Positions 214 to 47,942 of a stretch of DNA of 64,000 nt are shown here, piece by piece. The notes below the pieces were generated by a model. It was not told the origin of the DNA. It saw nothing but the letters and a program-made list of their open reading frames with translations, and did not search any database. The position numbers and the translations under genes were made by a program. This stretch comes from Nitrospirota bacterium (GTDB taxonomy: Bacteria > Nitrospirota > Nitrospiria > 2-01-FULL-66-17). Numbering within the stretch: position 1 is the stretch's first letter; every line of letters begins with the position of its first letter. The DNA lies in the NCBI GenBank assembly GCA_049325335.1, contig JBMOMC010000002.1, positions 46,612 through 110,611 on the forward strand, given 5' to 3'.

Positions 214-750
214 TCACTCGTCGTGATCCAACTCCACGTTCCAATACAGGTAGTCTTTCCATACTGATGGAGTATGAGACAGGCCGATGGTCATCGCCAG
301 GGCGGGGTTCCAGGAGGGTTTCACGGGCGCTTTGATCAGCTTCATGCGGGCTTCACCCGGCGTACGACCGCTCTTGTGGTTGTTGCACCGCCAGCACGCG
401 GTGACGATGTTCTCCCAGCTCTTCTTCCCCCCGCGGGCGATGGGCAAGACGTGATCGAACGTCAGGTCTTCGGTGCGAAACCGTTTCCCGCAGTACTGGC
501 ACGAGTAGTGGTCGCGGATAAAAATATTGGCGCGCGAGAATTTCACGCCCCGGCGCGCGGGCTCGATCCGAATCAGTTTCAGCAGGCGCAGGACCGCGGG
601 CAAGGGGACCGTGGTGCTGACCCCTCGAATGCGGCGGTCGTACACCTCCAACACTTCGACCTTTTCCTGCCACAACAAGGTCACGGCTTTTTGCCAGTGA
701 ATGATCCGGAGCGGTTCGTAGGACGCGTTCAGGAGAAGCGATTGTTCCAT
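214..750 (-). CDS. HNH endonuclease
   Basis: ORF 214..813; Cys pairs CQYCGK and CWRCNNHK around FDHVLPIARGG give the HNH zinc-finger nuclease signature; the 813 start is TTG, first ATG is at 750 (MEQSLL). Confidence 0.75.
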   Translation of the reverse strand: MEQSLLLNASYEPLRIIHWQKAVTLLWQEKVEVLEVYDRRIRGVSTTVPLPAVLRLLKLIRIEPARRGVKFSRANIFIRDHYSCQYCGKRFRTEDLTFDHVLPIARGGKKSWENIVTACWRCNNHKSGRTPGEARMKLIKAPVKPSWNPALAMTIGLSHTPSVWKDYLYWNVELDHDE

Positions 751-839
751 CGACGGAATACCCCAGCCGACTTGCCTCGCGGAAAGTGTATCAACTTTAA
801 CGACCCCGCGCAAACCATTGATCGGGGAGGATCGGGCCC

Positions 840-5996: not shown

Positions 5997-6668
5997 TCAC
6001 CCGCCGCAGAGGCGGTCGATCGGTTCCACGCGCGGGCCCTTGAGGTTGTCGCGCGCGGCGTCCGCGCAATCAAGACTCACCAAATACCGAACCAACTTGT
6101 CCAGCCCGGCGACGGTGAACGTCGCCTTGAAATGGGCGGGCATGGTGGATTCATCGGGCCGTTCGCGCTGCTCGAACCCCGGGACGATGAACGCGCTGGG
6201 GCGGAGGACGGACTCGCGGATGTATTCCTCGGGCGACCGAGCCGAAGCGCGGCCGGATCGGACCGCGGCTTGATACGCGGGGGAGGCCATCCGGCGCTCC
6301 GCGGTGACCTTGGGGAGTAAGAGAGGTCCTTCGACCCCGGATTGCGCGGTGAGGATTCCCGGGATCTGGTGGCACACGCCGCAACCCAGTTTGGTGATCA
6401 TTCGTTCTGGCGTGTCCTCGTCTTGCGCCACCACCGGTATCGATGCGGGCAACGTGTCAGAACCTGGAGTCGTCACGGGCCGCCCGGCTGGGATCGATAT
6501 CGGCGCGGGCGGGGCGAACCACGCATGCCATGCCGCATACCCTCCGACCACCAGCGCGGCGGACCCGACTCCGAGCGTGAGCCAACGGTACTCGGGGGTG
6601 CGAGCCGCGGTCGAGAGCAAGATGAGCGCCATCAGCAGAAACGGGACGGCGATCAGGACGGAGGTCAT
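5997..6668 (-). CDS. membrane-anchored mono-heme c-type cytochrome
   Basis: N-terminal TM helix and a single CxxCH motif (CGVCH); ATG at 6668, ORF-track start 6674 is GTG. Confidence 0.65.
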   Translation of the reverse strand: MTSVLIAVPFLLMALILLSTAARTPEYRWLTLGVGSAALVVGGYAAWHAWFAPPAPISIPAGRPVTTPGSDTLPASIPVVAQDEDTPERMITKLGCGVCHQIPGILTAQSGVEGPLLLPKVTAERRMASPAYQAAVRSGRASARSPEEYIRESVLRPSAFIVPGFEQRERPDESTMPAHFKATFTVAGLDKLVRYLVSLDCADAARDNLKGPRVEPIDRLCGG

Positions 6669-6735
6669 CAACACATCGCGTCGGTGGACATCGCGGGCGG
6701 GAACGATACCAGCGAGAGGGTGGTCGGGTCAATCG

Positions 6736-6773
6736 AGGCCGAACCGTCGCGTAAATGAGACGGTTCGGCCTCG
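6736..6773 (-). terminator. stem-loop downstream of sat (14-bp perfect stem)
   Basis: GAGGCCGAACCGTC / loop gcgtaaatga / GACGGTTCGGCCTC immediately after the sat stop on the minus strand. Confidence 0.5.
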
Positions 6774-6782
6774 GACCTAAGG

Positions 6783-7946
6783 TCAGGCCGGCGCGCGCAT
6801 CGCGTCGATGAGGATCTGCGCGACCTCGGCGCGGGAGAACTCCGGGGGCGGCATTTGGCCCGTACTCAACATTTCCCGGACTTTGGTCCCGGAGAGCGCG
6901 ACGTGGTTGGTCGGGTCGTGCGGGCAGGTCTTGGACGAGGCCATGCTCCCGCACGTTTTGCAGAAAAACGTGTTGTCGAAGAATAATGGCGTGATCCCCA
7001 GTTCGCCGTCCTTGAATTCCCCGAAAATGTGGTGAGCGTCGAACGACCCGTAGAAGTTGCCGACCCCCGCGTGATCGCGCCCTACGATAAAGTGGGTACA
7101 CCCGTAGTTCTTACGCACCAGGGCGTGAAAGATCGCCTCGCGCGGTCCGGCGTAGCGCATGGCCGCCGGCAGCACCCCGAGCAGGGTCCGGTTCTTGGGG
7201 TAGTAGTTCGCCAGCAATGCCTGATAACAGCGCATCCGCACGTTCGCCGGAATGTCGTCGGATTTGGTTTCGCCCACCAATGGGTGGATGAAGAGCCCGT
7301 CCACGATTTCGAGCGCGCATTTCTGGATGTACTCGTGCGCCCGATGAATGGGGTTTCGGGTCTGAAAACCCACCACGGTTTTCCAGCCCCGTTCCGCGAA
7401 CGCCTTGCGGGTGTCCGCGGGGTCCAGGCGGTTCTCGTGAAAATCCGCGTGGGTTTGCCGTCGCAACACGTCGACTTTGCCGCCCAACAAGACCTCACCG
7501 CGTTTGAACAAGTAGTCGACGCCGGGATGCTTGCGATCTTCGGTGCGGTAGATCGAGCGCGCGGCTTGGGCCTTGTCGCGTTGGTAACGCTCTTCCAAGT
7601 GCAGGATCGCCACGATCGTCCCGCTCTCGTCGGTCAGGGCCGCGTCACGGCCGTCCTTCAGGGCTGCGGCCTGGCCGTGATCCACCGCCAGGATGATCGG
7701 CAGGCTCCACGGCAAACCGTTGGCCAGATGCATGGCGTCGCGCACGCTCTCGTAGTCCTTGCGTCCCATGAACCCTTCGATGGGGCTGTAGGCGCCGGTG
7801 GCGATCAAGTCGAGATCGGACCGTTCCCGCGCGTTCAGCGCGATCTTCGGCATGTCGGCGGCTCGGCGTTCTAGGTCGGCTTGTTGTTCGGGCGGGACCA
7901 TTCGATTGATCAGGACGCCGCCGTGGGGGATGGATTGAATAGACAT
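6783..7946 (-). CDS. sat: sulfate adenylyltransferase (ATP sulfurylase)
   Basis: 387 aa; QTRNPIHRAHE and GRDHAGVG motifs characteristic of homo-oligomeric ATP sulfurylase. Confidence 0.9.
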   Translation of the reverse strand: MSIQSIPHGGVLINRMVPPEQQADLERRAADMPKIALNARERSDLDLIATGAYSPIEGFMGRKDYESVRDAMHLANGLPWSLPIILAVDHGQAAALKDGRDAALTDESGTIVAILHLEERYQRDKAQAARSIYRTEDRKHPGVDYLFKRGEVLLGGKVDVLRRQTHADFHENRLDPADTRKAFAERGWKTVVGFQTRNPIHRAHEYIQKCALEIVDGLFIHPLVGETKSDDIPANVRMRCYQALLANYYPKNRTLLGVLPAAMRYAGPREAIFHALVRKNYGCTHFIVGRDHAGVGNFYGSFDAHHIFGEFKDGELGITPLFFDNTFFCKTCGSMASSKTCPHDPTNHVALSGTKVREMLSTGQMPPPEFSRAEVAQILIDAMRAPA

Positions 7947-8063
7947 CTGGTTGTGCTCCTTTCCGCGAACGCTTCTAATAAGAAGCCGACACCCCGCGCG
8001 GGACGAGGTGTCGGTCAGTCGTCGGCTCTTGGATCGAGGCGCAGGGAGGTACGCCTCGACGAA

Positions 8064-10499
8064 TCAGGACGCCTTGTTCTCGATCACCAGCTTGTAGTGA
8101 TCCCCTTCCTGCTCCATGGACACGACGCGGTAGCCGTCGGCCTTCACGCTGCGCGGCACGTTCTCGGCGGGCTCGCCCGCGTCCAACAAGACTTCGAGGA
8201 TTTGCAGGGGATCCATTTCTTCCAATTGGAGCTTGGTTTTGACGTAGTTCATGGGACAGGCCACGCCCAACAGGTCCATTTTGATGGTCGGCGCGGTCGC
8301 GGGCTGAGCCGGAGTAGTCGAGGCGGATGGCGCCGGAGTCGTCTCCGCCTGCGAGCCCTGCGCGACCTTGAGCGAGGCGTCGATCTTGGCGAACGCGGTC
8401 CGGCACGCGTCCGCGAGCGCCTTGGCATCGGCCACGAACCGGCGGGCTTCGTCGAGGGTGATGTGCGATTTGACCGCCGCGCTCCGCTGGATCACGGCCT
8501 CGTACCGATCGCGCGGTACCACGCCCTTGTCCACCATGCGTTGCGAGAATTCCTTGAGCACCAATTCATGGCTGGTTGGCTCGATCGCTTGGGTCACCAA
8601 CAATCCCTTGGCCGCGGCCACGATGCCCAGTTCAGCCCGCATCACCGCGTCAACGGGCTTGTGTTTCTCGATGAGCACGCTGGCGTGCGCCAATTCGTAC
8701 TTGGAGTCTTCCAAGTGTTGTTCCACCATGTTAATGACGCCGCCTGCGCACTCGCCCGCGCCCGCATCCTCCAAGGAGAACGGGGTGTAGGCCCCGTAGT
8801 CCAGGTACTGCGACGGCGCGTCCGCGTGGGACGGCAAGGTGGTGTACGGTTCGAGCGCGGCCGTGATCGGGGCTTTGCCCACGCGGTCCACGAACGCGGT
8901 GAACGATTCGCCGGCTTGACGGTGATCGCGGTAGTACTCCAAGAGCGCGTCCACGACTTCCGGGAGTCGTTTGGCCGGGTACTTACCGCCCGGCAGACCG
9001 AACGCCACGCCGTGATCCGTGGATCGGCCGCCCAGGTGCAACTGGTACGCAGGGATCAACTGCCCGTCGATGCGGTGCCCGAGGCCGTGGAACCCGATTG
9101 ACGCGATGTGATGTTGGGCGCAGGAGTTGGGGCACCCGCTGACTTTGATGTCGATGCCCTTGAGGTCCTCGGCAAAAGCCTTGCCGTTGTGCGCCAATTG
9201 TTCACTGAGCGCGAGCCCGACCCCCTTGGACGAGGTGATGCCCAGACCGCAGGTGTCGGCGCCGGGGCACGTGACCACGTCGCCGACGCGGTCGGCGCCC
9301 GGCGTGCCCAACCCGATCGCGGTGAGCGCCTCGTGCAGCACGAGCAAATCCGCGTCCGCCACCCAGCGCAGGAGAAAGTTCTGAGTCACGGTGACCCGAA
9401 TGCTGCCGTGCGCGAACCGCTCCGTGATGTCGGCCAAACCGCGCAATTGCGCCGTGGTCAAGTCCCCGATCGGCAACGTGACCAATGCCGCGGAGTAGCC
9501 GGCCTGTTTTTGCGGTTTCACGTTGGTGGCCTGCCACGCCTCGAACGCGTGCGAGCGCGACCCGTTGGACGGCGGGCGCTTGGACCCGTTGGTGGGCACC
9601 GGCTCCGACATCGGTGCGAACGCGGCCAGCGTCGCGGCGTCGCGGCCTTCGCATACGAACGCGTACTCCTCAGCGTACATGGCGTAGAACTTCTCGAATC
9701 CGCCTTTTTCAATCAGGAACTTGAGTCGGGCCAGGCTGCGGTTCTTACGGTTGCCGTGGCGGTTGAACACCCGGAGCACGGCTTCACAACGCGGGCGCAA
9801 CTCCGACGCGGGCACCCACTCTTCCAGCAGATAGGGTCGTTTGGGGCTGGGCCCCAAGCCGCCGCCGACCGTGAGCCGGAATCCGATCTCTTCGCGGCCG
9901 TTCACCGTGCGTTTCACGGCCAACACGCCGAAGTCATGGATGCCGGTGAGCGCGCAATCGCTCGCGCAGCCCGAAAACGCGATCTTGAACTTGCGGGGCA
10001 GATTCTCGCACACGGGGTTGCGCAGAAAATGCATGGCCACGCCGTGGGCGTAGGGCGTCACGTCCACCACTTCGTCGCGGCAAATGCCCGCGTAGGGACA
10101 GGCGGTGACGTTGCGGACCGTGTTGCCGCACGCCTCGCGGGTGGTCAGGCCCACCTCCGCGAGTTGCCGCATGATCGCGGCGGTGTATTCGAGTTTGATG
10201 TAGTGGAGCTGAATGTCTTGGCGCGTAGTCAGGTGGGCCACGCCTCGTGAGTAGCGATCGCCGATGTCCGCGACGCGACGAAGTTGAGGCGCGGTCATCC
10301 CGCCGAACGGGATCTTGATGCGCACCATCTGCACGCCGTCTTGCCGTTGGCCGTAGATGCCGTGTTGCAACCGGAACCGTCGAAAGACCTCGGGATGGAT
10401 CTCGCCGCGCAGGAAACGCTGCGTTTCCTGTTCGTAGTTGGCGATCTCCTCCTCGATGTCAGGAGGAATGGTGTGCGTCGCGATTGTTGCCTGTGCCAT
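8064..10499 (-). CDS. sir: assimilatory sulfite reductase (sirohaem/4Fe-4S, ferredoxin-type) with C-terminal TusA-like domain
   Basis: Nitrite/sulfite reductase repeat pattern with cluster Cys (CPGADTCG, CPNSCAQHH); last ~75 aa IKMDLLGVACPMNYVKTK... resemble TusA with a Cys-Pro motif; ATG at 10499 preceded by GGAGG, ORF-track start 10565. Confidence 0.8.
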   Translation of the reverse strand: MAQATIATHTIPPDIEEEIANYEQETQRFLRGEIHPEVFRRFRLQHGIYGQRQDGVQMVRIKIPFGGMTAPQLRRVADIGDRYSRGVAHLTTRQDIQLHYIKLEYTAAIMRQLAEVGLTTREACGNTVRNVTACPYAGICRDEVVDVTPYAHGVAMHFLRNPVCENLPRKFKIAFSGCASDCALTGIHDFGVLAVKRTVNGREEIGFRLTVGGGLGPSPKRPYLLEEWVPASELRPRCEAVLRVFNRHGNRKNRSLARLKFLIEKGGFEKFYAMYAEEYAFVCEGRDAATLAAFAPMSEPVPTNGSKRPPSNGSRSHAFEAWQATNVKPQKQAGYSAALVTLPIGDLTTAQLRGLADITERFAHGSIRVTVTQNFLLRWVADADLLVLHEALTAIGLGTPGADRVGDVVTCPGADTCGLGITSSKGVGLALSEQLAHNGKAFAEDLKGIDIKVSGCPNSCAQHHIASIGFHGLGHRIDGQLIPAYQLHLGGRSTDHGVAFGLPGGKYPAKRLPEVVDALLEYYRDHRQAGESFTAFVDRVGKAPITAALEPYTTLPSHADAPSQYLDYGAYTPFSLEDAGAGECAGGVINMVEQHLEDSKYELAHASVLIEKHKPVDAVMRAELGIVAAAKGLLVTQAIEPTSHELVLKEFSQRMVDKGVVPRDRYEAVIQRSAAVKSHITLDEARRFVADAKALADACRTAFAKIDASLKVAQGSQAETTPAPSASTTPAQPATAPTIKMDLLGVACPMNYVKTKLQLEEMDPLQILEVLLDAGEPAENVPRSVKADGYRVVSMEQEGDHYKLVIENKAS

Positions 10500-10522
10500 G
10501 CGTGGTTCCTCCCGCGAACGGG

Positions 10523-11269
10523 TCAGCGGCTGGCCGTCGCCTTGGACCCGCTGTGCAACCCGCACTCTTTATGTTCCGGTGACTCCCACCACCACCGGCC
10601 CGCCCGGACATCCTCGCCGGGTTTGATCGCGCGCGTGCACGGCGCGCAGCCGATGCTGGGGAATCCCTGATCGTGCAGCTTATTATAGGGCACTTTATTG
10701 GTTTTGATGTACTCCCACACCTGGGACTCGGACCAGTGGATCAAGGGGTTGAGCTTGGCGATGCCGTTGTGCCCGGCGTCGTGCTCGATCATCGGCATGT
10801 CCGCGCGCGTGACGGCTTGGGCGCTTCGCAGTCCCGTGATCCACGCTCGCAACCCGGAGAGGGCCCGACCCAGGGGCTCGACCTTGCGCACACCGCAGCA
10901 CTCCTTGCGGTTCTCGATGCTTTGATAGAACAGGTTCACGCCCTTGGCTCGCACCATGGACTCGACCGCCGGGGCCTGCGGGAAGTAGGTCTCGATCGAC
11001 ACGCCGTAGCGATCCCGGACCGCGTCCATGACCTCGTAGGTCTCCGAGTGCAGGCGTCCGGTGTCCAAACAGAAGATCCTGGGCGTTCGGTGGAGTTTAC
11101 ACAACATGTCGACCAGCACCACGTCTTCCGCGCCGAAGCTGCACGCGAGCGAGACCTGCGAACCGAACTCGTTGAGCGCCCACTTGAGCACGACTTCGGC
11201 CGGTTGCACGGTGTATTGTTGGTTCAAGGTTTTGAGTTGTTCTTGCGTGTACAACGTAGCGGTGCTCAT
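10523..11269 (-). CDS. cysH: adenylylsulfate (APS) reductase, thioredoxin-dependent, Fe-S type
   Basis: PAPS/APS reductase fold; CC...CxxC pairs (ECCGVRK, CAPC) typical of the Fe-S-containing APS-reducing form. Confidence 0.85.
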   Translation of the reverse strand: MSTATLYTQEQLKTLNQQYTVQPAEVVLKWALNEFGSQVSLACSFGAEDVVLVDMLCKLHRTPRIFCLDTGRLHSETYEVMDAVRDRYGVSIETYFPQAPAVESMVRAKGVNLFYQSIENRKECCGVRKVEPLGRALSGLRAWITGLRSAQAVTRADMPMIEHDAGHNGIAKLNPLIHWSESQVWEYIKTNKVPYNKLHDQGFPSIGCAPCTRAIKPGEDVRAGRWWWESPEHKECGLHSGSKATASR

Positions 11270-11531
11270 CGGGACGTCAGCTCCTCAATCGTCATGGTTC
11301 TGGTGAGTAGAATATGACCGGGTCGGGGTCATCGCCTATCTTGCTTCAGTTGTGAGACTATTCCAACTAGTTTACTCAGAATCTGTTCACTATAAATGGC
11401 CCCTGAACGGCCTGTCAAGGCCACTTATAGCCCGCGGCGCGATCTGCATCGGAACGGTTCCTTGTCAACAAACCGACTCGTTTGTTATTGTTATTCTCCG
11501 TGCGGAACTTGTGAGGTAATCCGTCAACAAC

Positions 11532-21043: not shown

Positions 21044-22540
21044 ATGGTTACGCCACGCCTCCGTTCCGCCGCCCCGCGCGGTCCGTTCCGCGCGTTCCAA
21101 CGTCTTCATCTCACCACCAAACTCCTCTTGATGATGGGAGTGCTGACCGTGCTATCGCTCGGTTCGGTCTTCCTGTTCTATGCGTATAATGAACGACTGC
21201 TCATTCGAGAGATTACCGAGAATGTGAACGATCTCTCATCCGCGATCCAGATCAGCGGCGAGGAATTGACCAGCCAGGCGTCCACCAACGAGGGCCGGCT
21301 TCAAGATTATGTGGGCCGGTTGACTAAAAAGGGCGTGCGGGAAATTTCCATCATCAGTAACTCCGAAAAGGTCATTGCCAGCTCAAACCCGACTCGCGTG
21401 GGCCAGAAAATCAACCCGCATCGCAAGGATTTGTTCATCACGGCGCGACTGGGCGAGGGCAACGCCGAAGGCGTTCAGACCCATAATCTCTTGGTGCCGA
21501 TTGTCGTGGACAAGCAACAGGTCGGCTACGCCCACATCATGTTGGTGATGGACGATTACGAGCGGCTGCTCCGGACGAATCTGATCAAACGGTTGATGGT
21601 GACGGGCGGGATCTTCGGGCTCGGAGCCGGACTGGTGCTGTTTTTGTCGTGGCGGTACACGCGTCCCATCTATCAGGTCGTTGCGGTCGCCAAGCAAGTG
21701 GCCGCGGGCAACCTGTCGGCCACGCTTCCTCAAGACCGCGGCGACGAAATCGGCGAGCTGATTGCCAGCGTGAACGAGATGGTCGATCGGCTCAGAGAGC
21801 AGCGCGCCTTGGAAGACCGGCTGCGCGAGGCCGAGCGGTTTTCGGCGTTGGGGCAGCTCGCGGCTGGGATTGCCCACGAGATCCGCAATCCACTGAATTT
21901 CATCAGCCTGTCCCTCGACCGCGTTCGAGATCTCGTCAAGCGGGAGGATGGCGGCCGATCCGATGAGATCCCGGCGCTCCTCGGGAGTATCAAGGGCGAG
22001 GTGTTCCGGCTCAATCGCCTGATCGATAGTTTTTTGAAGTACGGGCGTCCGGTGAAGCTGGCGCGGCAGTGGGTGTCGGTGCGCGCGCTGCTGGACGACG
22101 TGATCGCGCTGGTCCGCCCGAAAGCGGATGAAGCCCGCGTGGCGCTGTCGGTGGACGGGGAGTCCCTTCCGCCGTGTTTCGTGGATCCCGAGCAGATCAC
22201 CCGGTGCGTCATGAACGTGATGCTCAATGCCTTTCAGTCGATGCCGGACGGCGGGAGACTGCGCGTGGTCTTGGCCTTGGAGCCCGGGGGCGACGAGTCC
22301 GTCGGGCGGTTCGTGCGGCTGGCAATCGGGGACACCGGGGCCGGTATCGGAGAAGAGGACTTGTCCCGGGTGTTCGAACCGTATTTTACGACCAAGAAGC
22401 TGGGCATCGGTCTGGGACTAGCCCTGACCAAGCAGATTATCGAAGAACACGGCGGGACGATCGCGATTGCCAGCCGGATCGGCGAGGGAACCACGGTCTC
22501 GATGCGGGTGCCGGTCGGACGCGACGAGGCGCGCGGATGA
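21044..22540 (+). CDS. sensor histidine kinase (TM-HAMP-HisKA-HATPase)
   Basis: H-box HEIRNPLNFIS, N/G boxes (DTGAGIGEED, GIGLGL). Confidence 0.85.
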   Translation: MVTPRLRSAAPRGPFRAFQRLHLTTKLLLMMGVLTVLSLGSVFLFYAYNERLLIREITENVNDLSSAIQISGEELTSQASTNEGRLQDYVGRLTKKGVREISIISNSEKVIASSNPTRVGQKINPHRKDLFITARLGEGNAEGVQTHNLLVPIVVDKQQVGYAHIMLVMDDYERLLRTNLIKRLMVTGGIFGLGAGLVLFLSWRYTRPIYQVVAVAKQVAAGNLSATLPQDRGDEIGELIASVNEMVDRLREQRALEDRLREAERFSALGQLAAGIAHEIRNPLNFISLSLDRVRDLVKREDGGRSDEIPALLGSIKGEVFRLNRLIDSFLKYGRPVKLARQWVSVRALLDDVIALVRPKADEARVALSVDGESLPPCFVDPEQITRCVMNVMLNAFQSMPDGGRLRVVLALEPGGDESVGRFVRLAIGDTGAGIGEEDLSRVFEPYFTTKKLGIGLGLALTKQIIEEHGGTIAIASRIGEGTTVSMRVPVGRDEARG

Positions 22541-23901
22541 CGCGATCGCTGCTGGTGGTGGACGACGAGCGCTCGCAACGCGAGATTCTGGAGCGTATTC
22601 TTCGCGACGAGGGGTACGAGGTGCGCACCGCGGGGACGGCGCGGGAGGCGGCCTCGATTCAGCGCCGTGGTCCGTGTGACGTCGTCCTGAGCGACGTGAA
22701 GATGCCGGACACCGAGGGGGTGTCCGTGCTGAACGATCTGCTCGGCGCGGCGCCAAACTCGACCGTGATCCTGATGACCGCGCACGGAACGATCGACTCC
22801 GCGGTGGACGCGATGAAAAAGGGCGCGTTCGACTACCTGACGAAGCCGCTGGATAAGGATGAGTTGCTGATCACCATCGCGCGGGCGTTCGAGCGCGTGA
22901 GCCTCTTGCGGGAGAACCGGCGGCTGCGCCAAGAACTAGATGACCGCGTTCGGGTCGGAAGCCTCATCGGACACCACCCGTCGATGCAGGACATCATCAA
23001 GGTCATCAAGAAGGTGGCGCCCAGCGCGTCGACCGTCTTGATCGTGGGTGAGAGCGGCACCGGCAAAGAGCTCATTGCGCGCGCGATTCATGATGAGAGC
23101 CCCCGACGGGAGCTGCCGTTTCAGGCGATCAACTGCGCGGCCATTCCCGATCCGCTGATGGAAAGCGAACTGTTCGGCTATGAGAAGGGGGCGTTCTCCG
23201 GCGCGCAGACTCGCAGCATCGGCCTCTTCGAGGCGGCTCACCGCGGGACGATCTTCCTGGATGAGATCGGCGACCTCGGGCTCGGTCTGCAGGCGAAAAT
23301 CTTGCGCACGTTGCAGGAGCGGACGATTCGCCGGGTCGGGGGACAAGAAGAAGTCCCGATCGACGTTCGCGTGGTGGCGGCGACCAACAAAGACCTCGAA
23401 GCGGAGATCACCGCGGGTCGGTTCCGTCTGGATCTGTTCTATCGCCTCAACGTGGTGACGCTCCGGGTGCCGCCGCTTCGCGAGCGTACGGCGGACATCC
23501 CGTACCTGGTCGACGCGTTTCTTCACAAACACGAGGGTATGGACCGTGGCGCCAAGACCATCTCGAAAGACGCACTGCGCGTGCTGATGGACTATCCGTG
23601 GCCGGGCAACGTCCGTCAGTTGGCCGCGACCATCGAGCGCGCGGTACTGCTCTGCGAGAAAGATGAAATTCAGGTGGATGATCTCCCGCCGGAAATCCGT
23701 CGGCCGCCGTCTCCGCTTCCCACCCCGTTTCAACTCCCGGTCGGCGGCGTGTCGCTCGATCAGCTCGAACGATCCTTGATCGAACAGGCGATGGCTCAGA
23801 GTCATGGAGTGATCGCCAAGGCCGCCCGTCTCCTCGGGCTCTCATACAAGACGCTCCAATATCGGCTCGAGAAGTTGCGGGCCGCCGACCCGCCGACCTG
23901 A
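22537..23901 (+). CDS. sigma-54-dependent response regulator (NtrC family)
   Basis: Receiver domain, AAA+ domain with GESGTGKE and GAFSGA, C-terminal HTH; ATG overlaps kinase stop (ATGA). Confidence 0.9.
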   Translation: MTRSLLVVDDERSQREILERILRDEGYEVRTAGTAREAASIQRRGPCDVVLSDVKMPDTEGVSVLNDLLGAAPNSTVILMTAHGTIDSAVDAMKKGAFDYLTKPLDKDELLITIARAFERVSLLRENRRLRQELDDRVRVGSLIGHHPSMQDIIKVIKKVAPSASTVLIVGESGTGKELIARAIHDESPRRELPFQAINCAAIPDPLMESELFGYEKGAFSGAQTRSIGLFEAAHRGTIFLDEIGDLGLGLQAKILRTLQERTIRRVGGQEEVPIDVRVVAATNKDLEAEITAGRFRLDLFYRLNVVTLRVPPLRERTADIPYLVDAFLHKHEGMDRGAKTISKDALRVLMDYPWPGNVRQLAATIERAVLLCEKDEIQVDDLPPEIRRPPSPLPTPFQLPVGGVSLDQLERSLIEQAMAQSHGVIAKAARLLGLSYKTLQYRLEKLRAADPPT

Positions 23902-25326: not shown

Positions 25327-26952
25327 ATGGGCCGGCGCACACCCGCCAAGGGACGGTCGCGACGCCCGAGGGCGTCTCCACGGACGGCCGCGACGCCGTC
25401 GAAGCTCTCCACGCTCCTGGAACACCTCCCCGGCATGATGTATCGGTCGCGGGCCGACGGGCGTCACACGATCGAGTTCGCGAGCGAGGGGTGTTTCGAC
25501 TTGACCGGGTATCGCCCCGAGGCGTTGACGGCCGGGATGACGAGGCCGGATCTGGTCCATCCCGACGACCAATGGTCCGTGGAGCGCGCCATTGGAGACG
25601 CGGTGGGCGCCAAACGCGCGTTTCGGGTGGAGTACCGATTGCGGACCGCGTCCGGGGAGACGCGGTGGGTCTCCGAGCAGGGGCGGGGAGTGTACACCCG
25701 TCGCGGCGCGCTCACCGCGGTGGAAGGCTACGTCAGCGACATCACGGAGCAGAAATCGGCCGAGCGGTTGCTGGCCGAGCAGGCGATCCGCGATGCGCTG
25801 ACCGGTTTGTACAACCGCCGATTTTTCGACGAACGCATCGACATTGAGTTGGCCCGCGCCAGACGCAACGGCCACGCCGTCGCGTTTTTGATGTGCGATC
25901 TTGATCATTTTAAATCCATCAACGACAGCCGGGGGCATCAGATCGGCGACGAGGTGCTCAAGGCCGTGGCCAACGTGATCATGGCGGCCACGCGCGGCAG
26001 CGACATGGTCGTGCGGTGGGGGGGCGATGAAGTCGTCATCGTATTGTCCGAAACGAACGAAGCCGGCGGCCGTATCGTGGCCGACCGCATTCGGCGGGCG
26101 GTGTGTCGGCTGAGCGAGGCCCGGGACATCCGGTTCGACATCAGCATCGGGATCGCGGTGTTCCCGAGCCACGGCGAATCCGTGAGCCAGATCATTCGGC
26201 TCGCCGACCGCGCGCTGTATATCGCCAAAAAAAGCGGGGAGCGCATCCATGTCGGGGACGAACACTACCGGTTGGACGAACAGGCCATCAAAGTGGTGTT
26301 TCAGCCGATTGTGGACGTCTGGTCCGACCAGGTGTTGGGATACGAAGCCCTGAGCCGAGACCCCGAGGGCCGGTTGAGCGTGGCCGAGTTGTTTCGCAAG
26401 TACCACGTGGTGGGTCAACTCGACGAACTCAAAACGATCTGTTTCAAGGAGCAGTTGCGGGTCGCGGAGGAACTCCGATTGAACCGGATTTTCCTGAACG
26501 TGGATTTCCACGTCTTGGAACATCTGGAACCGCCGCCCAAGCCGGACGGCACCGACGTCATCGTCGAAATCTCCGAGCGCGACGCGCTCCACGACGTGGA
26601 GCGGCATTTGGAGATCGCGGTGAAGTGGCGCGCGTGCGGCTACAAGTTCGCCATCGACGATTTCGGCGCGGGCTTCGTGTCGCTGCCGTTCGTGGCGCGG
26701 CTGATGCCCGAGTACATCAAGATCGACCGATCGCTGGTGCTCCAAGCCGTGGCGTCGGACACATTTAAGGGGTTTTCCAAACATCTCCTAATCGCCTTGA
26801 GGACCTATGCCACCGAGGGGATCATCGCCGAGGGGATCGAAACGGAACGAGAACTGGCGGCGATGAAGGGGATCGGGATTTTTATCATCCAAGGGTTTCT
26901 TTTGGGGCGTCCCCGGGCATTGGGGCCGGACCAGTCCGCCGACGCCGCGTAG
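25327..26952 (+). CDS. PAS-GGDEF-EAL protein (variant GGDEV motif; EAL residues intact)
   Basis: PAS region, GGDEF domain with RWGGDEV, EAL domain with YEALSR, DDFGAGF, EGIETE, QGF. Confidence 0.85.
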   Translation: MGRRTPAKGRSRRPRASPRTAATPSKLSTLLEHLPGMMYRSRADGRHTIEFASEGCFDLTGYRPEALTAGMTRPDLVHPDDQWSVERAIGDAVGAKRAFRVEYRLRTASGETRWVSEQGRGVYTRRGALTAVEGYVSDITEQKSAERLLAEQAIRDALTGLYNRRFFDERIDIELARARRNGHAVAFLMCDLDHFKSINDSRGHQIGDEVLKAVANVIMAATRGSDMVVRWGGDEVVIVLSETNEAGGRIVADRIRRAVCRLSEARDIRFDISIGIAVFPSHGESVSQIIRLADRALYIAKKSGERIHVGDEHYRLDEQAIKVVFQPIVDVWSDQVLGYEALSRDPEGRLSVAELFRKYHVVGQLDELKTICFKEQLRVAEELRLNRIFLNVDFHVLEHLEPPPKPDGTDVIVEISERDALHDVERHLEIAVKWRACGYKFAIDDFGAGFVSLPFVARLMPEYIKIDRSLVLQAVASDTFKGFSKHLLIALRTYATEGIIAEGIETERELAAMKGIGIFIIQGFLLGRPRALGPDQSADAA

Positions 26953-34625: not shown

Positions 34626-35263
34626 GGCGTCTCCTTGACGCGGTCCACCCGCTTCTGGAGCGCGGCGATCCAGATCGCCACCTCCTCTTGCCCCTCTCCG
34701 CCCGCAGCCAGATAGGTCTGATAGTGCTCGATCGCCTTGTCGGGTTCATTGAGATACAGATCGTAGAGCACTGCCAGGTTGTAGTCGGCGTCTCGGAAAT
34801 CCGGCGCGGCATTGAGCGCGCGGCGGTATGCGTCTTCGGCCTGGCGAAACTTGCCTTGCTCGCGCAATGCGAGCCCCATGTTGTAGTAGGCTTCGGGGTA
34901 TTGGGGTTGGATCTTGATCGCCTGTTGGTACGCGGCTACGGCTTCCGGCAGCAGTCCCATGCGCTTGTAGACCACGCCGAGATTGTTGTGGAACACGCTC
35001 ACGTGCGGGTAGCTGGTCCGCAAGTTTTCGAACGCGGCCCTGGCTTCCTTGAGCTTTCCGTTCTCAATCAGGCTCGTACCTTTTTGGAAGCGTAGGAGAA
35101 CCTGGTCAAGTTTTTGTGCCTCAGCGGCACGCGATTCGTCGCTTCGCGCGGTGGTCTGAGTCGGGATCGGCGCGGGCGGCGGCAACATCGCGCGGGTGCA
35201 AGCCGTCAGCGCCGCGACAAGGACGAGCAACAGACGCATGAATTTCTGGGGACGGGTACTCAT
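34622..35263 (-). CDS. TPR-repeat lipoprotein
   Basis: Signal peptide with LTAC lipobox; at least three TPR units. Confidence 0.75.
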   Translation of the reverse strand: MSTRPQKFMRLLLVLVAALTACTRAMLPPPAPIPTQTTARSDESRAAEAQKLDQVLLRFQKGTSLIENGKLKEARAAFENLRTSYPHVSVFHNNLGVVYKRMGLLPEAVAAYQQAIKIQPQYPEAYYNMGLALREQGKFRQAEDAYRRALNAAPDFRDADYNLAVLYDLYLNEPDKAIEHYQTYLAAGGEGQEEVAIWIAALQKRVDRVKETP

Positions 35264-38103
35264 CGTTCAGCCGCCAAGAGCCTGTCAATGATTGACGAGA
35301 GCGGTTTAGCCGTCAACGTCTCGACATCGATATTCGAAGTGAGTCGCTCGGTTCGCTCTGGACGTTTGTAGAGCGCGGGCCGCAATTCCGCCAGCCGGTC
35401 GTAACTCTTCTTGACCCACTCGTTGTAGGCTCCCGGTTGGCTCGACGCCCGCTGCACGTTGCTGGCATACGCCTGAATCGCCTTTTCTTCAAACGGGAAC
35501 GCTTTCTCTTCCAGTTGGAACTTGTACTCGTCCACCTGTTCCGGGGTGAGTTTCTTCGGGAGTTCGGCTTCGAGCAGCGCGGTCTTGAAGTGTTCGAACA
35601 CCTCGCCCAGGCGGTACGCGGACGTGGCAACCACCTCCTGGTATCGCGTCTCCGCGGCCCGTGTGTAGAGCGTGATCGTCTTGTCCAACGCCTGAGTCTT
35701 ATTTTTGAGGTTCTTTTTGAACGGCTCCCTCAGGGCGATTTTTTTAAGCGACCGGAACGACTCCTCGGCCTGGTGGAACACGGCTTGCGCCGCGAACTGG
35801 GTGCCGGGTGCCTGTTGTTCCACCTCCGTGAACAGCTTGAGGGCCTCCATGGTCTTCCCCTGGCGCTGCCGGATCATGGCCATCTTCCACCAACCTTCAG
35901 GCGCATCCGGGTGTTTGGGGAACCGCTCGGTGAATTGCGCGAAGACCGCGTAGCTCTTGTCCCATTGGGAGGCCTTTTCGTAATCGACACCGGCGGTCCA
36001 GAGAATCTGTGGCGCCTGCGCGTGGTGTTGGGGTAACGTGGCCGCGGCTTCGAAAGCCTCGGCGGCTTCGCCCCACTGTTCACCTTGTTCGTAAATCAAG
36101 GCGGTTTGGAGCGCGGCTTTTGCGCCGAGGTCGGACGTGGGGTCGCGCTGGACCAGTTGCTGGTAGGCGGCGATCGCCTCGCGCGGCTGCTTGAGCGTTT
36201 CGTACAGACTCGCCGCCTCGAACAACGCGTCGGCCGCCAAGGGGCTCTCCGGGGCTTCGCGCGAGATGGCGGCAAACGTCTTGGCCGCGTCGCTGAGCCG
36301 ATTGGCCTTCTTGTGCTGCTCTCCCTGCTTGTACATGGCCGCGGCCAACAGATCGTTCATCTCGCGCTGCTGGGCCTTGTCCGCTGTCGGGAGGAGCGAC
36401 AGGGTCAGCGCGTACGCCGCGCGAGCCTCGTCGAAACGGCCTTGCCGCATATAGGAGTGGGCGATCAACTTCTGCGCGGTGGCGGTGCCCGTGAAATTGG
36501 GATACCGGGACAAGACCTGCCCCAACATCTCGCGCGCCTCGGCATCGCGTTGCTGGTCGAACAGGATCTCGCCGGACTTGAGCAAGACCGTGGGCGTCCG
36601 GGCATCCTTCGGGAACTGATCCGCGAACCGTTTCGTCAACGCGACGAATCGCTCGTGGCCCTTCTTGTCCTGAAGTTTTTCCGCGGCCACGATGGCGGAG
36701 TACGCGGGTTCTTTGTCCGCCGCGACTCCGGGATAGCTGTAGGCCACGGCTTCGTACGCCGCGGCCGCCTGCGCATACTCCTGCAACGCCATCAGGGATT
36801 CGGCGTACAGCAGATGGACTTCCCGCGTGTCCTTTTCCTCAGGGAACTCCGCGAGGAACTGGCGATACCATCCGACTGCTTCCCGATACTGCTCGGCCTG
36901 TTTGCTCTCCCGCGCAGCGGCATGCGCGGACACCCCGAGCCGGTACAGACTGTCTTTGACCAAGGGGCGCGAGCGGGCTCGACCGGCCTCGTCGGTGGCC
37001 TTGTACCAGACGCTGGTGCTCAGGTACCCGTTCACGAGTGCGATTCTGGCGTCACGCGCGGCTTCGGGATCCCTCTCCTTCTCGTACGCCTCGATGACAT
37101 ACGACGCGAAGATGGGCGCCATGTCGTGCATGGGATGCTGTTGTACGAACGTCCGGTAGGTCGCAATCGCCTGCTGCCGGTTCCCCTCACCCAGATATTG
37201 GTTCCCCATCATGAGGTAGAGATCTTTCTCGTAGAGCGCGATCCCGTGTTGTTTGAAATAGTCGGCCATGGGTTGCGGCCCGCCCAACCCCCGGAATGAA
37301 ATAGCCACGTACGTCAGCGCTTCCCACACGAGGGACCCGGAGTCGGCGGCCGTGGCCGGTTGTCCGGCGGTCTTCTTGTCCACGAGGTACAAGAACTGAT
37401 CGACCGCGTGCGGGTATGCGCGGAGATTGAAGTAGGTCCACCCGAGTTTGTACCGGGCCCGGTCTTGAAGGACCGGATCGTCGAGCCCAATCGTCTGCTC
37501 ATAGGCGTCAGCCGCCTGCTCGAATCGACGGCCGTCAAAGTCGGATTCGCCGATACGGAAATATGCTTCCTGGAGGTGGGGACTGGTCGGGTATTCCGCG
37601 ACCAACTTACTGAGCAACGGCTGGGCCAGGTCCCGACGCCCGGTCTCCGAGTAGGCACGGGCCAGACCGTACAGCACGTCGTCCTGCGCATGAAATGTCG
37701 GATCGGTTTCGAGCAACGTCCGGTAGGTCGTGATCGCGTCGTCGTAATTGACCAGCGGCGGGGGGCCTTGTGGGTCCTTCTCATACGCCTCCATCGCCGA
37801 GAGAAATTGCTGGTGCGCGCGTTCAAGATACAGATCCCCGAGCCGTTTGAGTGCCTCGGATCGCAGGACGGGGTCCACGGTTCCGTAATCCTTGAGAAAG
37901 CCTTCATACCCTGTGATCACGTCGGCTTTGCGAACCACGGGCAACGGCGCGCTCGAAGCCGCGTTTACGGCCTCCGAGTCCACGCGCAACACGCCGTGAT
38001 CCTTCGCGCTTGCGCAGGCCGTCAGCAGGCATGTGAGGCCGGCGAGAGACCACGTGGTCGCGGTGTGAAAAACACGGTGTTTCATTGGCTCGCCATATCC
38101 CAC
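35260..38103 (-). CDS. large TPR-repeat protein (947 aa), secreted
   Basis: Signal peptide then TPR-like helical repeats throughout. Confidence 0.8.
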   Translation of the reverse strand: MGYGEPMKHRVFHTATTWSLAGLTCLLTACASAKDHGVLRVDSEAVNAASSAPLPVVRKADVITGYEGFLKDYGTVDPVLRSEALKRLGDLYLERAHQQFLSAMEAYEKDPQGPPPLVNYDDAITTYRTLLETDPTFHAQDDVLYGLARAYSETGRRDLAQPLLSKLVAEYPTSPHLQEAYFRIGESDFDGRRFEQAADAYEQTIGLDDPVLQDRARYKLGWTYFNLRAYPHAVDQFLYLVDKKTAGQPATAADSGSLVWEALTYVAISFRGLGGPQPMADYFKQHGIALYEKDLYLMMGNQYLGEGNRQQAIATYRTFVQQHPMHDMAPIFASYVIEAYEKERDPEAARDARIALVNGYLSTSVWYKATDEAGRARSRPLVKDSLYRLGVSAHAAARESKQAEQYREAVGWYRQFLAEFPEEKDTREVHLLYAESLMALQEYAQAAAAYEAVAYSYPGVAADKEPAYSAIVAAEKLQDKKGHERFVALTKRFADQFPKDARTPTVLLKSGEILFDQQRDAEAREMLGQVLSRYPNFTGTATAQKLIAHSYMRQGRFDEARAAYALTLSLLPTADKAQQREMNDLLAAAMYKQGEQHKKANRLSDAAKTFAAISREAPESPLAADALFEAASLYETLKQPREAIAAYQQLVQRDPTSDLGAKAALQTALIYEQGEQWGEAAEAFEAAATLPQHHAQAPQILWTAGVDYEKASQWDKSYAVFAQFTERFPKHPDAPEGWWKMAMIRQRQGKTMEALKLFTEVEQQAPGTQFAAQAVFHQAEESFRSLKKIALREPFKKNLKNKTQALDKTITLYTRAAETRYQEVVATSAYRLGEVFEHFKTALLEAELPKKLTPEQVDEYKFQLEEKAFPFEEKAIQAYASNVQRASSQPGAYNEWVKKSYDRLAELRPALYKRPERTERLTSNIDVETLTAKPLSSIIDRLLAAER

Positions 38104-40010
38104 AGACGAATTTGGTTGAGCCGCGCCGCGGCGGCCATGGTTTCGATCCGCCCGTGGCGTTGGTCCACGGCTTTGACCAACAGGGCTTGCAGCGGCGGGA
38201 GGAGTTCGGCCCGCGCCGCGGTTAATCGGCGTTGGTGCGCAACCAAATCGCGTCTGATGTCACGGATGTCGCTGCGGAACGTGCCGAGTCGGTTTTCAAT
38301 GCCCGCAATGGATTCCACCAACTTCCGTTGATCGCGATCCGCCTGCTCAAGGTCCTCGTGCAATCGGTTTAACGCACGTTGAAGGTCGTCGCGTCGTCCC
38401 GGGACGTCGGTGGCAATGGTCCATACACGCTCGCCATAGAGCACATCGAGCCAGCGATCGGTCGTTTGCCACTGCGCCCGAAGGTCGTGGAGCCGGTCAC
38501 GCACGGCAGGTGTTCCGTCGTCCATCCGTCGGATGGATTCTCCGACCGCACGGCTCTTCCGCCGAGCGTCTTCCAGCTCGTCGAGCGCGGGGCGCTCAGC
38601 GCCCGATGCCCAGTTCCGCGCGGTCTCGTGCCGGACAGCCTGCTCGATCGCGGTTTGCAACACAGCCTCTCGCTGCGTGAGCGGGGCCACGGGGCTTTCA
38701 TCGAGAAAGCCTTGCACAATGGGCACGCGCTCGCGAAAAATCGCTTGTCGATGCTCGAGCATCACGTCGAAGACGGCCGTGTCCTCGAGTTTTCGGGCCA
38801 GGTAGTGCTCAAGGGCCGCGAGTTCGCCGTATTGTTTGACCCAGTATCGGAGTCCGTCGTCTTCCAGGATCGGAGCGAGGGGACTCCGCATCACTGCGTG
38901 GAAGTCCGTAAACAGCGCGTCCAATTGATCGCGATCTCGGATCAGGGATTTGATCGCAAGAAGGTTCTGCTGTGTCCGCTGGTAGGTGTCCAGGGCCGTG
39001 ACATACGATTCGAGCGCCTTGGCGTGTTGTCCCAGGCGGTCGTAGCAATGGCCGATCGTGGTGAGGGCTTCCAGCGCATAAGGATGGTCGGGGGCCGCGC
39101 GTACGAGCGCTAAAAACGCGGCAAGCGACTCGTTGTACCGCTTGCGATACAAATGAGCCCAACCTAAGCCGAACGTCGCGTCGGGGTAGAACCGGCTGCT
39201 CGAAGGCACGGAGGCCAAGGTCGGGACCGCGTTGTCGTACCACCCGGTCTCGGTGAACAACAATCCCAATGTCACTCGGCTCTTCTCGGCAAGGGCTTGG
39301 CGTTCCGCGTCGTCCTCGGGGGTGAACGCGCCCGCGCCTTCGAGCAGGCGGATCGCGGCCGACACGTCGGCCAGTTGCATCCGGGATTTGGCCGACGCCA
39401 GCGCGGCGAACGGGCGGTACGCGCTGGAAGTCGGAACCGTCGCGAACGCGCGCAGCGATTCGTCGAATTGCCCCAGCGCGTAATGGCTCATTCCGGCGAA
39501 GTAGGCGGCTTGGTCAAGCGATGCGAATGTCGGATCGCGATCAAGTCGCTTGTACGTGGACACCGCAGCCTCGTACAAGGATCGCGAGTATTGGAGCCGT
39601 TCGATCAGCAGCAACACCTGGTTACGGTCGTTTCCCGGTGGGAATGTGGCAACGAGCTGATCAAAGATGGTTCTGGCGGACCGGTGAAGGCCCCATGCCA
39701 GATAGAGGCTGCCCCGAAGCAGGCGGGTCTCGTTGAGCAGGCTGGGCTCGTTCTGAACCCCCTTTTCCATCAGCTTCAGTCGAGTCGCGGACGTCAGGTA
39801 GTCCTCCAGAAAGAAGTGGTAGTAGGCTTCTTTCTTAAGCGAGGCCACGGTGGCGGGGGATACGGGGGAGACCGGCCATGCCTCGGCCGTGGTCGCTCCG
39901 ACCTGGAGGGTGTCGGAAGCCGCAGCAAGGGGCGTGGTGCCATCCCCGGCAAAGGCCGGGAACGCCCACGCGCCGAGACTCAGGACAAGGATGTTAATGC
40001 CACGCTTCAT
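38082..40010 (-). CDS. TPR-repeat protein (642 aa), secreted
   Basis: Signal peptide; TPR-like repeats and coiled-coil C-terminal region. Confidence 0.7.
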   Translation of the reverse strand: MKRGINILVLSLGAWAFPAFAGDGTTPLAAASDTLQVGATTAEAWPVSPVSPATVASLKKEAYYHFFLEDYLTSATRLKLMEKGVQNEPSLLNETRLLRGSLYLAWGLHRSARTIFDQLVATFPPGNDRNQVLLLIERLQYSRSLYEAAVSTYKRLDRDPTFASLDQAAYFAGMSHYALGQFDESLRAFATVPTSSAYRPFAALASAKSRMQLADVSAAIRLLEGAGAFTPEDDAERQALAEKSRVTLGLLFTETGWYDNAVPTLASVPSSSRFYPDATFGLGWAHLYRKRYNESLAAFLALVRAAPDHPYALEALTTIGHCYDRLGQHAKALESYVTALDTYQRTQQNLLAIKSLIRDRDQLDALFTDFHAVMRSPLAPILEDDGLRYWVKQYGELAALEHYLARKLEDTAVFDVMLEHRQAIFRERVPIVQGFLDESPVAPLTQREAVLQTAIEQAVRHETARNWASGAERPALDELEDARRKSRAVGESIRRMDDGTPAVRDRLHDLRAQWQTTDRWLDVLYGERVWTIATDVPGRRDDLQRALNRLHEDLEQADRDQRKLVESIAGIENRLGTFRSDIRDIRRDLVAHQRRLTAARAELLPPLQALLVKAVDQRHGRIETMAAAARLNQIRLWDMASQ

Positions 40011-47745: not shown

Positions 47746-47942
47746 AGCGTCCTCGTTTCTCGGGGTGAAGAGTGGGTACATGGCTCGTCGCATAGGTGCA
47801 AATCGCATGCGAGGCTCGGTGTGGAGCTCGATCGCGGCCGCGGGGGCGAAACGCTCGATTGCCGGCTTGTCGTTGTTCGAACATGGACATCGGATTCAAA
47901 AATGGTGATGACCCTTCCATGGGTAATTACCATCCGGTGATG

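Follow-up and report, generated by a model that had tools for sequence, protein, structure and literature searches.

A siroheme sulfite reductase with a HEPN-like module and a fused TusA-family domain in a Nitrospirota sulfate-assimilation operon

In textbook sulfate assimilation, sulfite reductase releases free sulfide, which is then taken up by cysteine synthase. The HcyS/HcyF/HcyD/MetY pathway of Wolinella succinogenes, the cysteine counterpart of which is the CysO/CysM/Mec/MoeZ pathway of Mycobacterium tuberculosis, was reportedly reconstituted with sulfide from Sir by Krishnamoorthy and Begley (2011). Here, we analyze a gene on the minus strand of a 64-kb stretch of the Nitrospirota contig JBMOMC010000002.1 (hereafter, the window), at positions 8064..10499, where a sulfite reductase (SiR) core, a helical HEPN-like module, a flexible linker and a TusA-family domain are encoded in one polypeptide. 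The gene is one unexceptional representative of a large family that has already been annotated, and the link of this family to sulfur carriers was foreshadowed in 2006. The reading that we favor, and that sequence comparisons make slightly probable in our judgment, is that the TusA cysteine takes sulfur from the attached reductase as a persulfide and hands it to partner proteins.

According to the relevant passages of Iyer et al. (2006, PMC1779556), gene neighborhoods that link sulfate assimilation with ThiS, JAB and E1 always hold SirA (that is, TusA), their E1 always lacks a rhodanese domain, and SirA was predicted to act in the rhodanese role; the taxa given there for neighborhoods with SirA, sulfite reductase and ThiS include Wolinella and Geobacter. 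The same passages treat SirA as a neighborhood 'protein' and mention neither a fusion nor a HEPN-like module. In Escherichia coli, the TusA persulfide gives its sulfur to MoaD-AMP bound to the rhodanese-less MoeB, and also to TusD, a member of the DsrE family, whereas in MOCS3 a persulfide is followed by an acyl-disulfide that is resolved by a second cysteine (PMC5372717).

The open reading frame (ORF) of the fused gene covers 8064-10565 of the minus strand when counted from an upstream GTG. Its probable start codon is the ATG at 10499, which sits 23 nt past the cysH stop codon, is preceded at a distance of 7 nt by a Shine-Dalgarno-like GGGAGGA (10507..10513, minus strand) and gives a complete product of 811 aa plus stop, comprising the SiR core, the HEPN-like module, the linker and TusA. 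The initial annotation, made from the sequence of the window, had placed a fused ORF at 8064-10499, and this ORF is present on the minus strand; the length of 812 aa given for it has to be corrected to 811 aa plus the stop codon. The claim that it is a single gene holds as well. The frame is continuous, with neither a stop nor a frameshift between the parts, and of 80 related genome loci, 77 encode the SiR core, middle module and TusA without interruption in a single frame, which excludes a frameshifted pair of separate genes. A genome scan with the TusA signature recovered relatives in at least 595 species genomes.

Residues 1-555 (8835..10499, minus strand) form a siroheme/[4Fe-4S] sulfite/nitrite-reductase core with two NIR_SIR_ferr plus NIR_SIR repeats, as identified with Pfam (NIR_SIR, E 4.5e-55; NIR_SIR_ferr, E 2.2e-37; two stretches each, residues ~49-548). 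The best solved relative of the core is M. tuberculosis NirA/SirA (PDB 1zj8; E 8e-52). The four cysteine ligands of the cluster and siroheme, C411-x5-C417 and C456-x3-C460 (within 9120..9269, minus strand), align to the CSGIEFC and GCPNSC segments of 1zj8 and are invariant in our alignment A1, as are the basic residues R93, R129, K170 and K172 (the last two within RKFK), which are the same in 1zj8. In SiRHP and NirA, these basic residues are ligands of the anionic substrate. C124, the counterpart of Cys161 of the M. tuberculosis enzyme, is also conserved. With both Pfam repeats and all cofactor ligands intact, the reductase core is complete, as had been proposed. All these features of the core, including C124, are shared with 1zj8 and with the plant ferredoxin-dependent sulfite/nitrite reductases. 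In contrast to the window protein, those enzymes stop at the end of the core (1zj8 could be aligned to residue ~540), and the window protein is ~255 residues longer owing to its HEPN-like module, linker and TusA domain. It misses every curated NCBIfam equivalog cut-off for sulfite and nitrite reductases (NF007126, the NirA family, 287.9 vs 523; TIGR02042, ferredoxin Sir, 121.4 vs 731.5; TIGR02041, CysI, 102.1 vs 756.6) and thus represents a distinct subfamily. By sequence, the gene is that of an assimilatory siroheme/[4Fe-4S] sulfite reductase of the NirA/Sir type (the ferredoxin-dependent class) with two extra C-terminal parts.

The gene lies in a cysH–sir-tusA–sat operon, all on the minus strand. 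Directly upstream is cysH, which encodes an adenylylsulfate/phosphoadenylylsulfate (APS/PAPS) reductase, the producer of sulfite (10523..11269, minus strand; Pfam PAPS_reduct, E 1.1e-50), and directly downstream is sat, which encodes an ATP sulfurylase with PUA_2 and ATP-sulfurylase domains (6783..7946, minus strand; E 2.4e-99 and 9e-54). This flanking, together with the adjacency of CysH to the fused gene in 60 of the 80 related loci, supports sulfite as the physiological substrate. That the core is instead an assimilatory nitrite reductase (NirA) appears highly improbable. NirA-family proteins and plant nitrite reductases are among the best NCBIfam and PDB matches, and many of the related organisms oxidize nitrite, but the NCBIfam nitrite-reductase scores are all far under their cut-offs, the best match of known structure, M. 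tuberculosis 'NirA', is itself a sulfite reductase, genes for CysH/CysDN and for ThiS/MetY/CysK accompany the family in addition to the flanking cysH and sat of the window, and a sulfur-carrier domain would have no obvious use in the reduction of nitrite.

The C-terminal domain, residues 738-811 (8067..8288, minus strand), belongs to the TusA family. The Pfam TusA profile PF01206 matches residues 740-807 with E 3.6e-18 and 65.6 bits against a cut-off of 28.6, and the predicted fold is a two-layer alpha/beta sandwich; the initial annotation of a TusA-like module with a Cys-Pro motif is thereby confirmed, the motif being C748-P749. The putative persulfide-carrying cysteine lies in Cys748-Pro-Met-Asn751 (8247..8258, minus strand), part of the signature CPxN[YF]V[KR]xK. 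In the segment GVACPMNYV, C748 aligns with the catalytic cysteine of E. coli TusA (1dcj, 3lvj), YedF (1je3) and TM0983 (1jdq), and C748, P749 and N751 are invariant in alignment A3. Of 182 fused domains, 181 have Asn where CPxP has its second Pro; the window motif likewise reads CPMN rather than canonical CPxP. Two single proteins depart from the common arrangement: P0025 (899 aa) carries two tandem TusA domains behind the HEPN-like module, and in P0035 the TusA cysteine is replaced by Gly (GVAGPLNYV), perhaps because of a sequencing error or because the domain is dead.

Unlike the described members of the TusA/SirA family (3lvj/1dcj, 1je3, 1jdq and YeeD/TsuB, 8j4c), which are free-standing and carry CPxP, the window domain is fused to an enzyme and carries CPxN, and its sulfur source would be the attached reductase instead of a cysteine desulfurase. 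The fold of YeeD raises the question of whether TusA acts on the input side: its cysteine would bind thiosulfate or other oxidized sulfur as Cys-S-thiosulfonate, as in YeeD/TsuB and Metallosphaera TusA, and deliver sulfite or sulfane sulfur to the reductase for thiosulfate assimilation. We give this little credence. YeeD is matched equally by any TusA fold, and the sequence likeness to it is weak (E 0.2); the conserved partners CysH, Sat and CysDN yield sulfite from sulfate; and no annotation of a YeeE/TsuA-type transporter was seen among the Pfam-annotated genes of loci L081-L089, although no search aimed at such a transporter was made.

Between the core and the TusA domain, residues 556-712 (8364..8834, minus strand) form a HEPN-fold helical module with helices at residues 588-611, 615-635, 644-656, 663-676 and 682-712. 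AlphaFold2 predicts this five-helix bundle both in a model of residues 556-811, with an overall pLDDT (predicted local distance difference test) of 85, and in a full-length model, with one of 79, and Foldseek comparisons were consistent with this domain picture and with a HEPN topology. The initial annotation had treated the stretch between SiR and TusA as a linker and overlooked the module together with its invariant cysteine, Cys584. The term is apt for residues ~713-737 only (8289..8363, minus strand), a low-complexity, flexible Pro/Ala/Ser/Thr segment with pLDDT <50 over 711-735 and varying length and sequence in the alignments; a plain linker across the whole region is ruled out by the conserved, confidently predicted bundle of residues ~556-712.

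In the window protein, the Pfam HEPN profile PF05168 scores below its cut-off (18.3 bits vs 22, E 0.0026), while many homologs carry a precomputed PF05168 match. The catalytic Rx4-6H motif has no conserved copy among 23 diverse family members, and a PDB sequence search with the middle module gave only non-significant HEPN matches (E 1.7). Given the missing motif and the sub-threshold score, we call the module HEPN-like and non-catalytic; a catalytic HEPN RNase is ruled out by the lack of Rx4-6H. Besides these two features, the module differs from HEPN proteins such as AF0298 (2hsb), 4nqf, the sacsin HEPN domain (3o10) and TT1696 (1ufb) in that it is embedded in a redox enzyme and not in a toxin or nucleotidyltransferase system, and in its unique invariant, Gly-Glu-Cys before helix 1.

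This Gly582-Glu583-Cys584 triplet (8748..8756, minus strand; alignments A1, A2 and A3) lies at the entry of the module, just before the first helix. Down to 27% identity, the only invariant features of the bundle are D567, F574, L634 and this triplet, and both extra cysteines of the protein, 584 and 748, are invariant down to 27-38% identity. Among 279 full-length members, the cysteine of G[ED]C is kept in 262 and CPxN in 264, with both present in 247. The module cysteine is kept even where TusA is lacking, as seen in 14 counted members. A second cysteine of the module, C699, is conserved among close relatives only; it is not kept in distant members and is ruled out as a universal partner cysteine. 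A search with the middle module yielded 120 clusters at 50% identity, and in all 39 full-length cluster representatives the module is C-terminal of the SiR core; TusA follows it in 32, and the protein ends before TusA in seven.

The genomic surroundings of relatives link this subfamily to two sulfur-transfer systems. Homologs in Fibrobacterota, Acidobacteriota, Kiritimatiellia, Omnitrophota and other groups are found with ThiS, rhodanese-less ThiF, JAB, MetY and/or CysK/M, CysH and CysDN, resembling the type 4e clusters of Iyer, Burroughs & Aravind (2006); such a cluster is at least in part present at L068, L069, L077, L078, L081-L083 and L087-L089. The fullest arrangement, at L068 and L078, is PALP (CysK/M-like)–ThiS–MetY–ThiF (270 aa, rhodanese-less)–Prok-JAB–SiR-TusA–DUF2061–CysH–CysD–CysN, and L081 has the same with an Rrf2 gene in front. 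Shorter versions are MetY–ThiF–JAB–SiR-TusA at L082, ThiS–MetY–ThiF–JAB–SiR-TusA at L087 and L088, and PAPS reductase–JAB–SiR-TusA at L089. At L069, a fusion of N-terminal ThiS with a cysteine-synthase-like PALP (1204-2343) is found together with SiR-TusA, a ThrC-like PALP, a MoaD/Urm1-like ThiS and ThiF. DUF2061, a small predicted membrane protein of 76-100 aa, is encoded directly 3' of SiR-TusA in several of the clusters outside Nitrospirota (L068, at 6723-6992; L078; L075; L081; L087).

JAB is also found in the same polypeptide. L077 (3949-6744) encodes a single JAB–SiR–TusA protein of 931 aa, and fusions of this kind, 910-940 aa long, account for 12 of the 120 matches listed in a protein search seeded from Fibrobacterota (including P0258, P0262, P0278, P0293, P0310 and P0313); in one further match among these 120, P0347, a PAPS-reductase domain is fused in place of JAB.

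In Nitrospirota, the gene is found near members of DsrE, a classical partner family of TusA. In L086, a sister of the window locus with 57% identity, a 138-aa DsrE-family gene (10501-10917) lies between sir-tusA and sat. A DsrE-like gene is also found behind cysH in nine more Nitrospirota loci (L002, L003, L014, L015, L022, L027, L038, L040 and L071). The recurrent gene orders and the gene fusions tie the SiR–TusA subfamily to ThiS-type protein-thiocarboxylate systems and to DsrE. The earlier suggestion that the reductase is linked to sulfur trafficking is thus supported by the ThiS/ThiF/JAB/CysK-M/MetY clusters, the JAB fusions and the DsrE gene of sister Nitrospirota; that the fused carrier channels the sulfide is what we infer in addition.

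We propose that sulfite made by CysH would be reduced at the siroheme and that the reduced sulfur would be trapped covalently as a persulfide on the tethered Cys748, possibly through Cys584. The 25-residue disordered tether would let TusA swing between the reductase and an acceptor, to which the sulfur would be passed instead of, or besides, diffusing off as free sulfide. In the other phyla, the sulfur would most likely go to a ThiS-type carrier in its acyl-adenylate form, held by a rhodanese-less ThiF-like enzyme; the resulting ThiS thiocarboxylate would feed CysK/M- or MetY-type enzymes, and JAB would release the amino acid. In sister Nitrospirota, the DsrE-family protein is the likely partner.

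A cycle of three steps can be written for the two cysteines. Sulfide would attack a Cys584–Cys748 disulfide to give Cys748-SSH and Cys584-SH; the Cys748 persulfide would then attack the ThiS acyl-adenylate to form an acyl-disulfide; and Cys584, or a cysteine of the E1, would resolve the acyl-disulfide, releasing ThiS-COSH and restoring the disulfide. The proposed cycle would be chemically balanced and mirrors the scheme put forward for MOCS3 (PMC5372717). As in MOCS3, Uba4 and MoeZ, a Cys-persulfide carrier is tethered to an enzyme of sulfur incorporation, with a second cysteine proposed to resolve the acyl-disulfide; the difference is that the carrier of the window protein has the TusA fold and not that of rhodanese, and is tethered to a sulfur-producing reductase and not to an adenylating E1.

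Several observations weigh against such a relay. The second Pro of the CPxP motif is swapped for Asn, and by sequence the domain is nearest to YedF/TM0983 (E 1e-6 to 3e-8), with TusA proper matching weakly (E 0.05). A persulfide could be formed from fully reduced sulfide only with an oxidized partner such as a disulfide, and the Cys584–Cys748 disulfide is hypothetical. The structural models do not place Cys584 relative to the active site, the loop around it having a pLDDT <50. No gene for ThiS, ThiF, JAB, CysK/M or MetY (by tblastn), nor for DsrE or a second TusA, was found in the 64-kb window; unlike the type 4e clusters and the W. succinogenes and M. tuberculosis pathways, the window operon is just cysH–sir–sat, with none of ThiS, ThiF, JAB or a pyridoxal phosphate (PLP) enzyme. 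Most Nitrospira-type loci, too, lack an acceptor gene within ±6 kb. Two syntenic sisters of ~53% identity, L084 (8001-10193) and L085 (5165-7402), retain the operon and encode the core and the HEPN-like module, cysteine included, but no TusA, so that TusA is either dispensable in some lineages or supplied from elsewhere in the genome. At L083, where the order is SiR-TusA–PALP–JAB–ThiS–ThiF-rhodanese, ThiF has a rhodanese of its own, so that TusA is not just a stand-in for rhodanese. Finally, bisulfide reportedly served as nucleophile in the W. succinogenes reconstitution, so that free sulfide may be enough.

Part of this evidence would fit a protein whose sole product is free sulfide, with the HEPN-like module and TusA serving as structural, regulatory or protective add-ons (for example, in oligomerization, in electron-donor docking, or in using the two cysteines to sense redox state or sulfide). 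The TusA-less syntenic relatives with an intact operon, the missing acceptor genes in the window and in most Nitrospira loci, the lack of a catalytic motif in the HEPN-like module and the reported sufficiency of bisulfide all point in this direction. Against it stand the strict invariance of the catalytic cysteine and the TusA signature across a wide divergence, the tandem TusA duplication in P0025, and the recurrent linkage, by gene order and fusion, to ThiS/ThiF/JAB and DsrE, both of which are Cys-persulfide transfer systems. We regard the add-on explanation as rather unlikely and favor hand-over of the sulfur through the TusA cysteine.

A different way of forming the persulfide is suggested by the dissimilatory enzymes. 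DsrAB/DsrC and the TusA–DsrEFH relay likewise combine a siroheme sulfite reductase with Cys-based sulfur carriers, and the TusA and DsrE families co-occur with the reductase. In contrast to DsrAB, the window core is of the assimilatory monomeric type, scores only 60.8 bits against 392.9 for dsrA and 77.4 against 341.5 for dsrB, and is found in the context of CysH and Sat; no DsrC-like gene was seen among those that this analysis annotated. By analogy to DsrC, the window enzyme could carry out a four-electron reduction, after which Cys584 and/or Cys748 would trap the zero-valent sulfur in a persulfide or trisulfide and free sulfide would never form. Such direct capture would yield a persulfide without an external oxidant and fits with two invariant cysteines outside the catalytic core, one of them on a mobile domain. 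Moreover, the loops of Cys584 (residues 579-587, low in both AlphaFold2 models) and C124 (residues 123-128), with pLDDT <50, are the only poorly modeled parts of the folded protein, as would be expected of cofactor-dependent regions. The comparison is, however, a pure analogy: the models give no sign that either cysteine reaches the siroheme, the characterized relatives of this NirA/Sir-type core perform the full six-electron reduction, and TusA-less members exist. We consider this mechanism quite improbable.

A broader version, in which assimilatory sulfite reduction would proceed with no release of free sulfide at all, seems unlikely to us. Here, Cys584 and Cys748 would capture the sulfur either after full reduction, by means of the interdomain disulfide, or at a four-electron step as with DsrC, and it would exit only as protein persulfide to DsrE-like or ThiS-type carriers. 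Were this the case, sulfur assimilation in Nitrospira, Nitrospina and many phyla would be a protein-bound relay and not the textbook sulfide pool.

The favored reading, transfer of sulfur from the reductase to the TusA cysteine and on to partner proteins, matters beyond the window because the subfamily is the form encoded at these loci in major nitrite oxidizers (Nitrospira and Nitrospina) as well as in some bacteria from several other phyla, with a persulfide-carrier domain and a second invariant cysteine built into the reductase. If the relay operates, toxic and easily oxidized sulfide would stay protein-bound in aerobes, and the sulfur source of the protein-thiocarboxylate routes to cysteine and methionine would be explained. 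The protein also offers a compact, one-polypeptide system for studying product transfer from a siroheme reductase. Its value rests in the biochemistry of the family and not in the window locus.

The architecture had been taken in the initial annotation for one that is not standard for Sir, and this did not stand. The at least 595 species genomes are mainly those of Nitrospirota and Nitrospinota, with others from Acidobacteriota, Fibrobacterota, Poribacteria, Kiritimatiellia and further groups, and the best 80 include Nitrospirota, Nitrospinota, Poribacteria, Fibrobacterota, Omnitrophota, Planctomycetota and Kiritimatiellia. Among the 120 full-length matches listed in a search with the whole protein, the named ones mostly from Nitrospirota/Nitrospira, reductase domains were present in 120 and TusA in 113; in the second, Fibrobacterota-seeded search, both domains were present in all 120 matches listed, those named being from Terriglobales, Terracidiphilus, Deltaproteobacteria, Elusimicrobia, Calditrichaeota and Chitinivibrionales. 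NCBI labels the family proteins 'sulfurtransferase TusA family protein' and JGI 'sulfite reductase (ferredoxin)', and one JGI label names both domains, 'sulfite reductase beta subunit-like hemoprotein/TusA-related sulfurtransferase'. Given the wide distribution and these existing names, the architecture is common and already annotated. In full-text literature searches, neither the SiR–TusA fusion nor the HEPN-like module was found explicitly described. Four features appear to be absent from the searchable literature: a HEPN-fold module marked by an invariant Gly-Glu-Cys, the signature CPxN in the fused TusA domains, the association with DsrE in Nitrospirota and the recurrent JAB–SiR–TusA fusions.

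The closest relative of the window protein, with 95% identity and an identical gene order, is found in the Nitrospirota metagenome-assembled genome (MAG) Betzabe_MAG041, accession JBMOMD01. The syntenic lineage to which the window belongs has the order HEAT – chorismate-binding – aminotransferase – CNNM – … – PAPS reductase – SiR – ATP sulfurylase, and the genes flanking the operon in the window, for a CNNM/CorC transporter, an aminotransferase, a chorismate-binding enzyme and an ABC exporter, are unrelated to it. At L084 and L085, an Rrf2 gene is located between those for CNNM and PAPS reductase, and a SpoU gene is present as well; the window has neither. Across the 80 related loci, Rrf2 accompanies the fused gene in 59 and CysN/APS-kinase in 48. 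The Nitrospira-type order is Rrf2 regulator, SiR-TusA, CysH, TrpD-like Glycos_transf_3 protein and CysN/APS kinase. The fourth of these, an anthranilate-phosphoribosyltransferase-like protein with Glycos_trans_3N and Glycos_transf_3 domains, is conserved in 53 loci, where its gene separates cysH from cysN/APS kinase (for example, 369 aa at L041, 7576-8685).

A promoter-like site, TTGACA-18-TATAGT (11/12 matches to the consensus), lies 5' of cysH at 11389..11418 on the minus strand and is, by this consensus match, a candidate operon promoter; three such sites occur in the region, where chance would give 1.1. A terminator-like hairpin of 12 pairs, eight of them G-C, is followed by CTTCTTATT and lies in the interval from the fused gene to sat (7986..8014, minus strand); this is a pattern match of a kind that occurs four times in the region against 5.0 expected in shuffled sequences. 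From these signals, cysH and sir-tusA may be cotranscribed as a unit from which read-through into sat is attenuated. An Rfam scan of the whole window gave zero matches. Directly 3' of sat, a 225-aa ORF (5997-6674, minus strand) has coding-like GC content at third codon positions and no Pfam match; a related MAG locus, L001, has it in the corresponding position with 90% conservation.

The remainder of the window includes genes with no evident tie to the SiR–TusA finding, namely those for an HNH endonuclease (214-813, minus strand), a sigma-54 response regulator (22174-23901, plus strand), a PAS-GGDEF-EAL protein (25327-26952, plus strand) and two large TPR proteins (35260-40010, minus strand). 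An 831-aa protein encoded at 45313-47808 (minus strand) contains the middle domain of the hydrazine-synthase alpha subunit (HZS_alpha, E 8e-20) and a weakly matching C-terminal cytochrome c domain.

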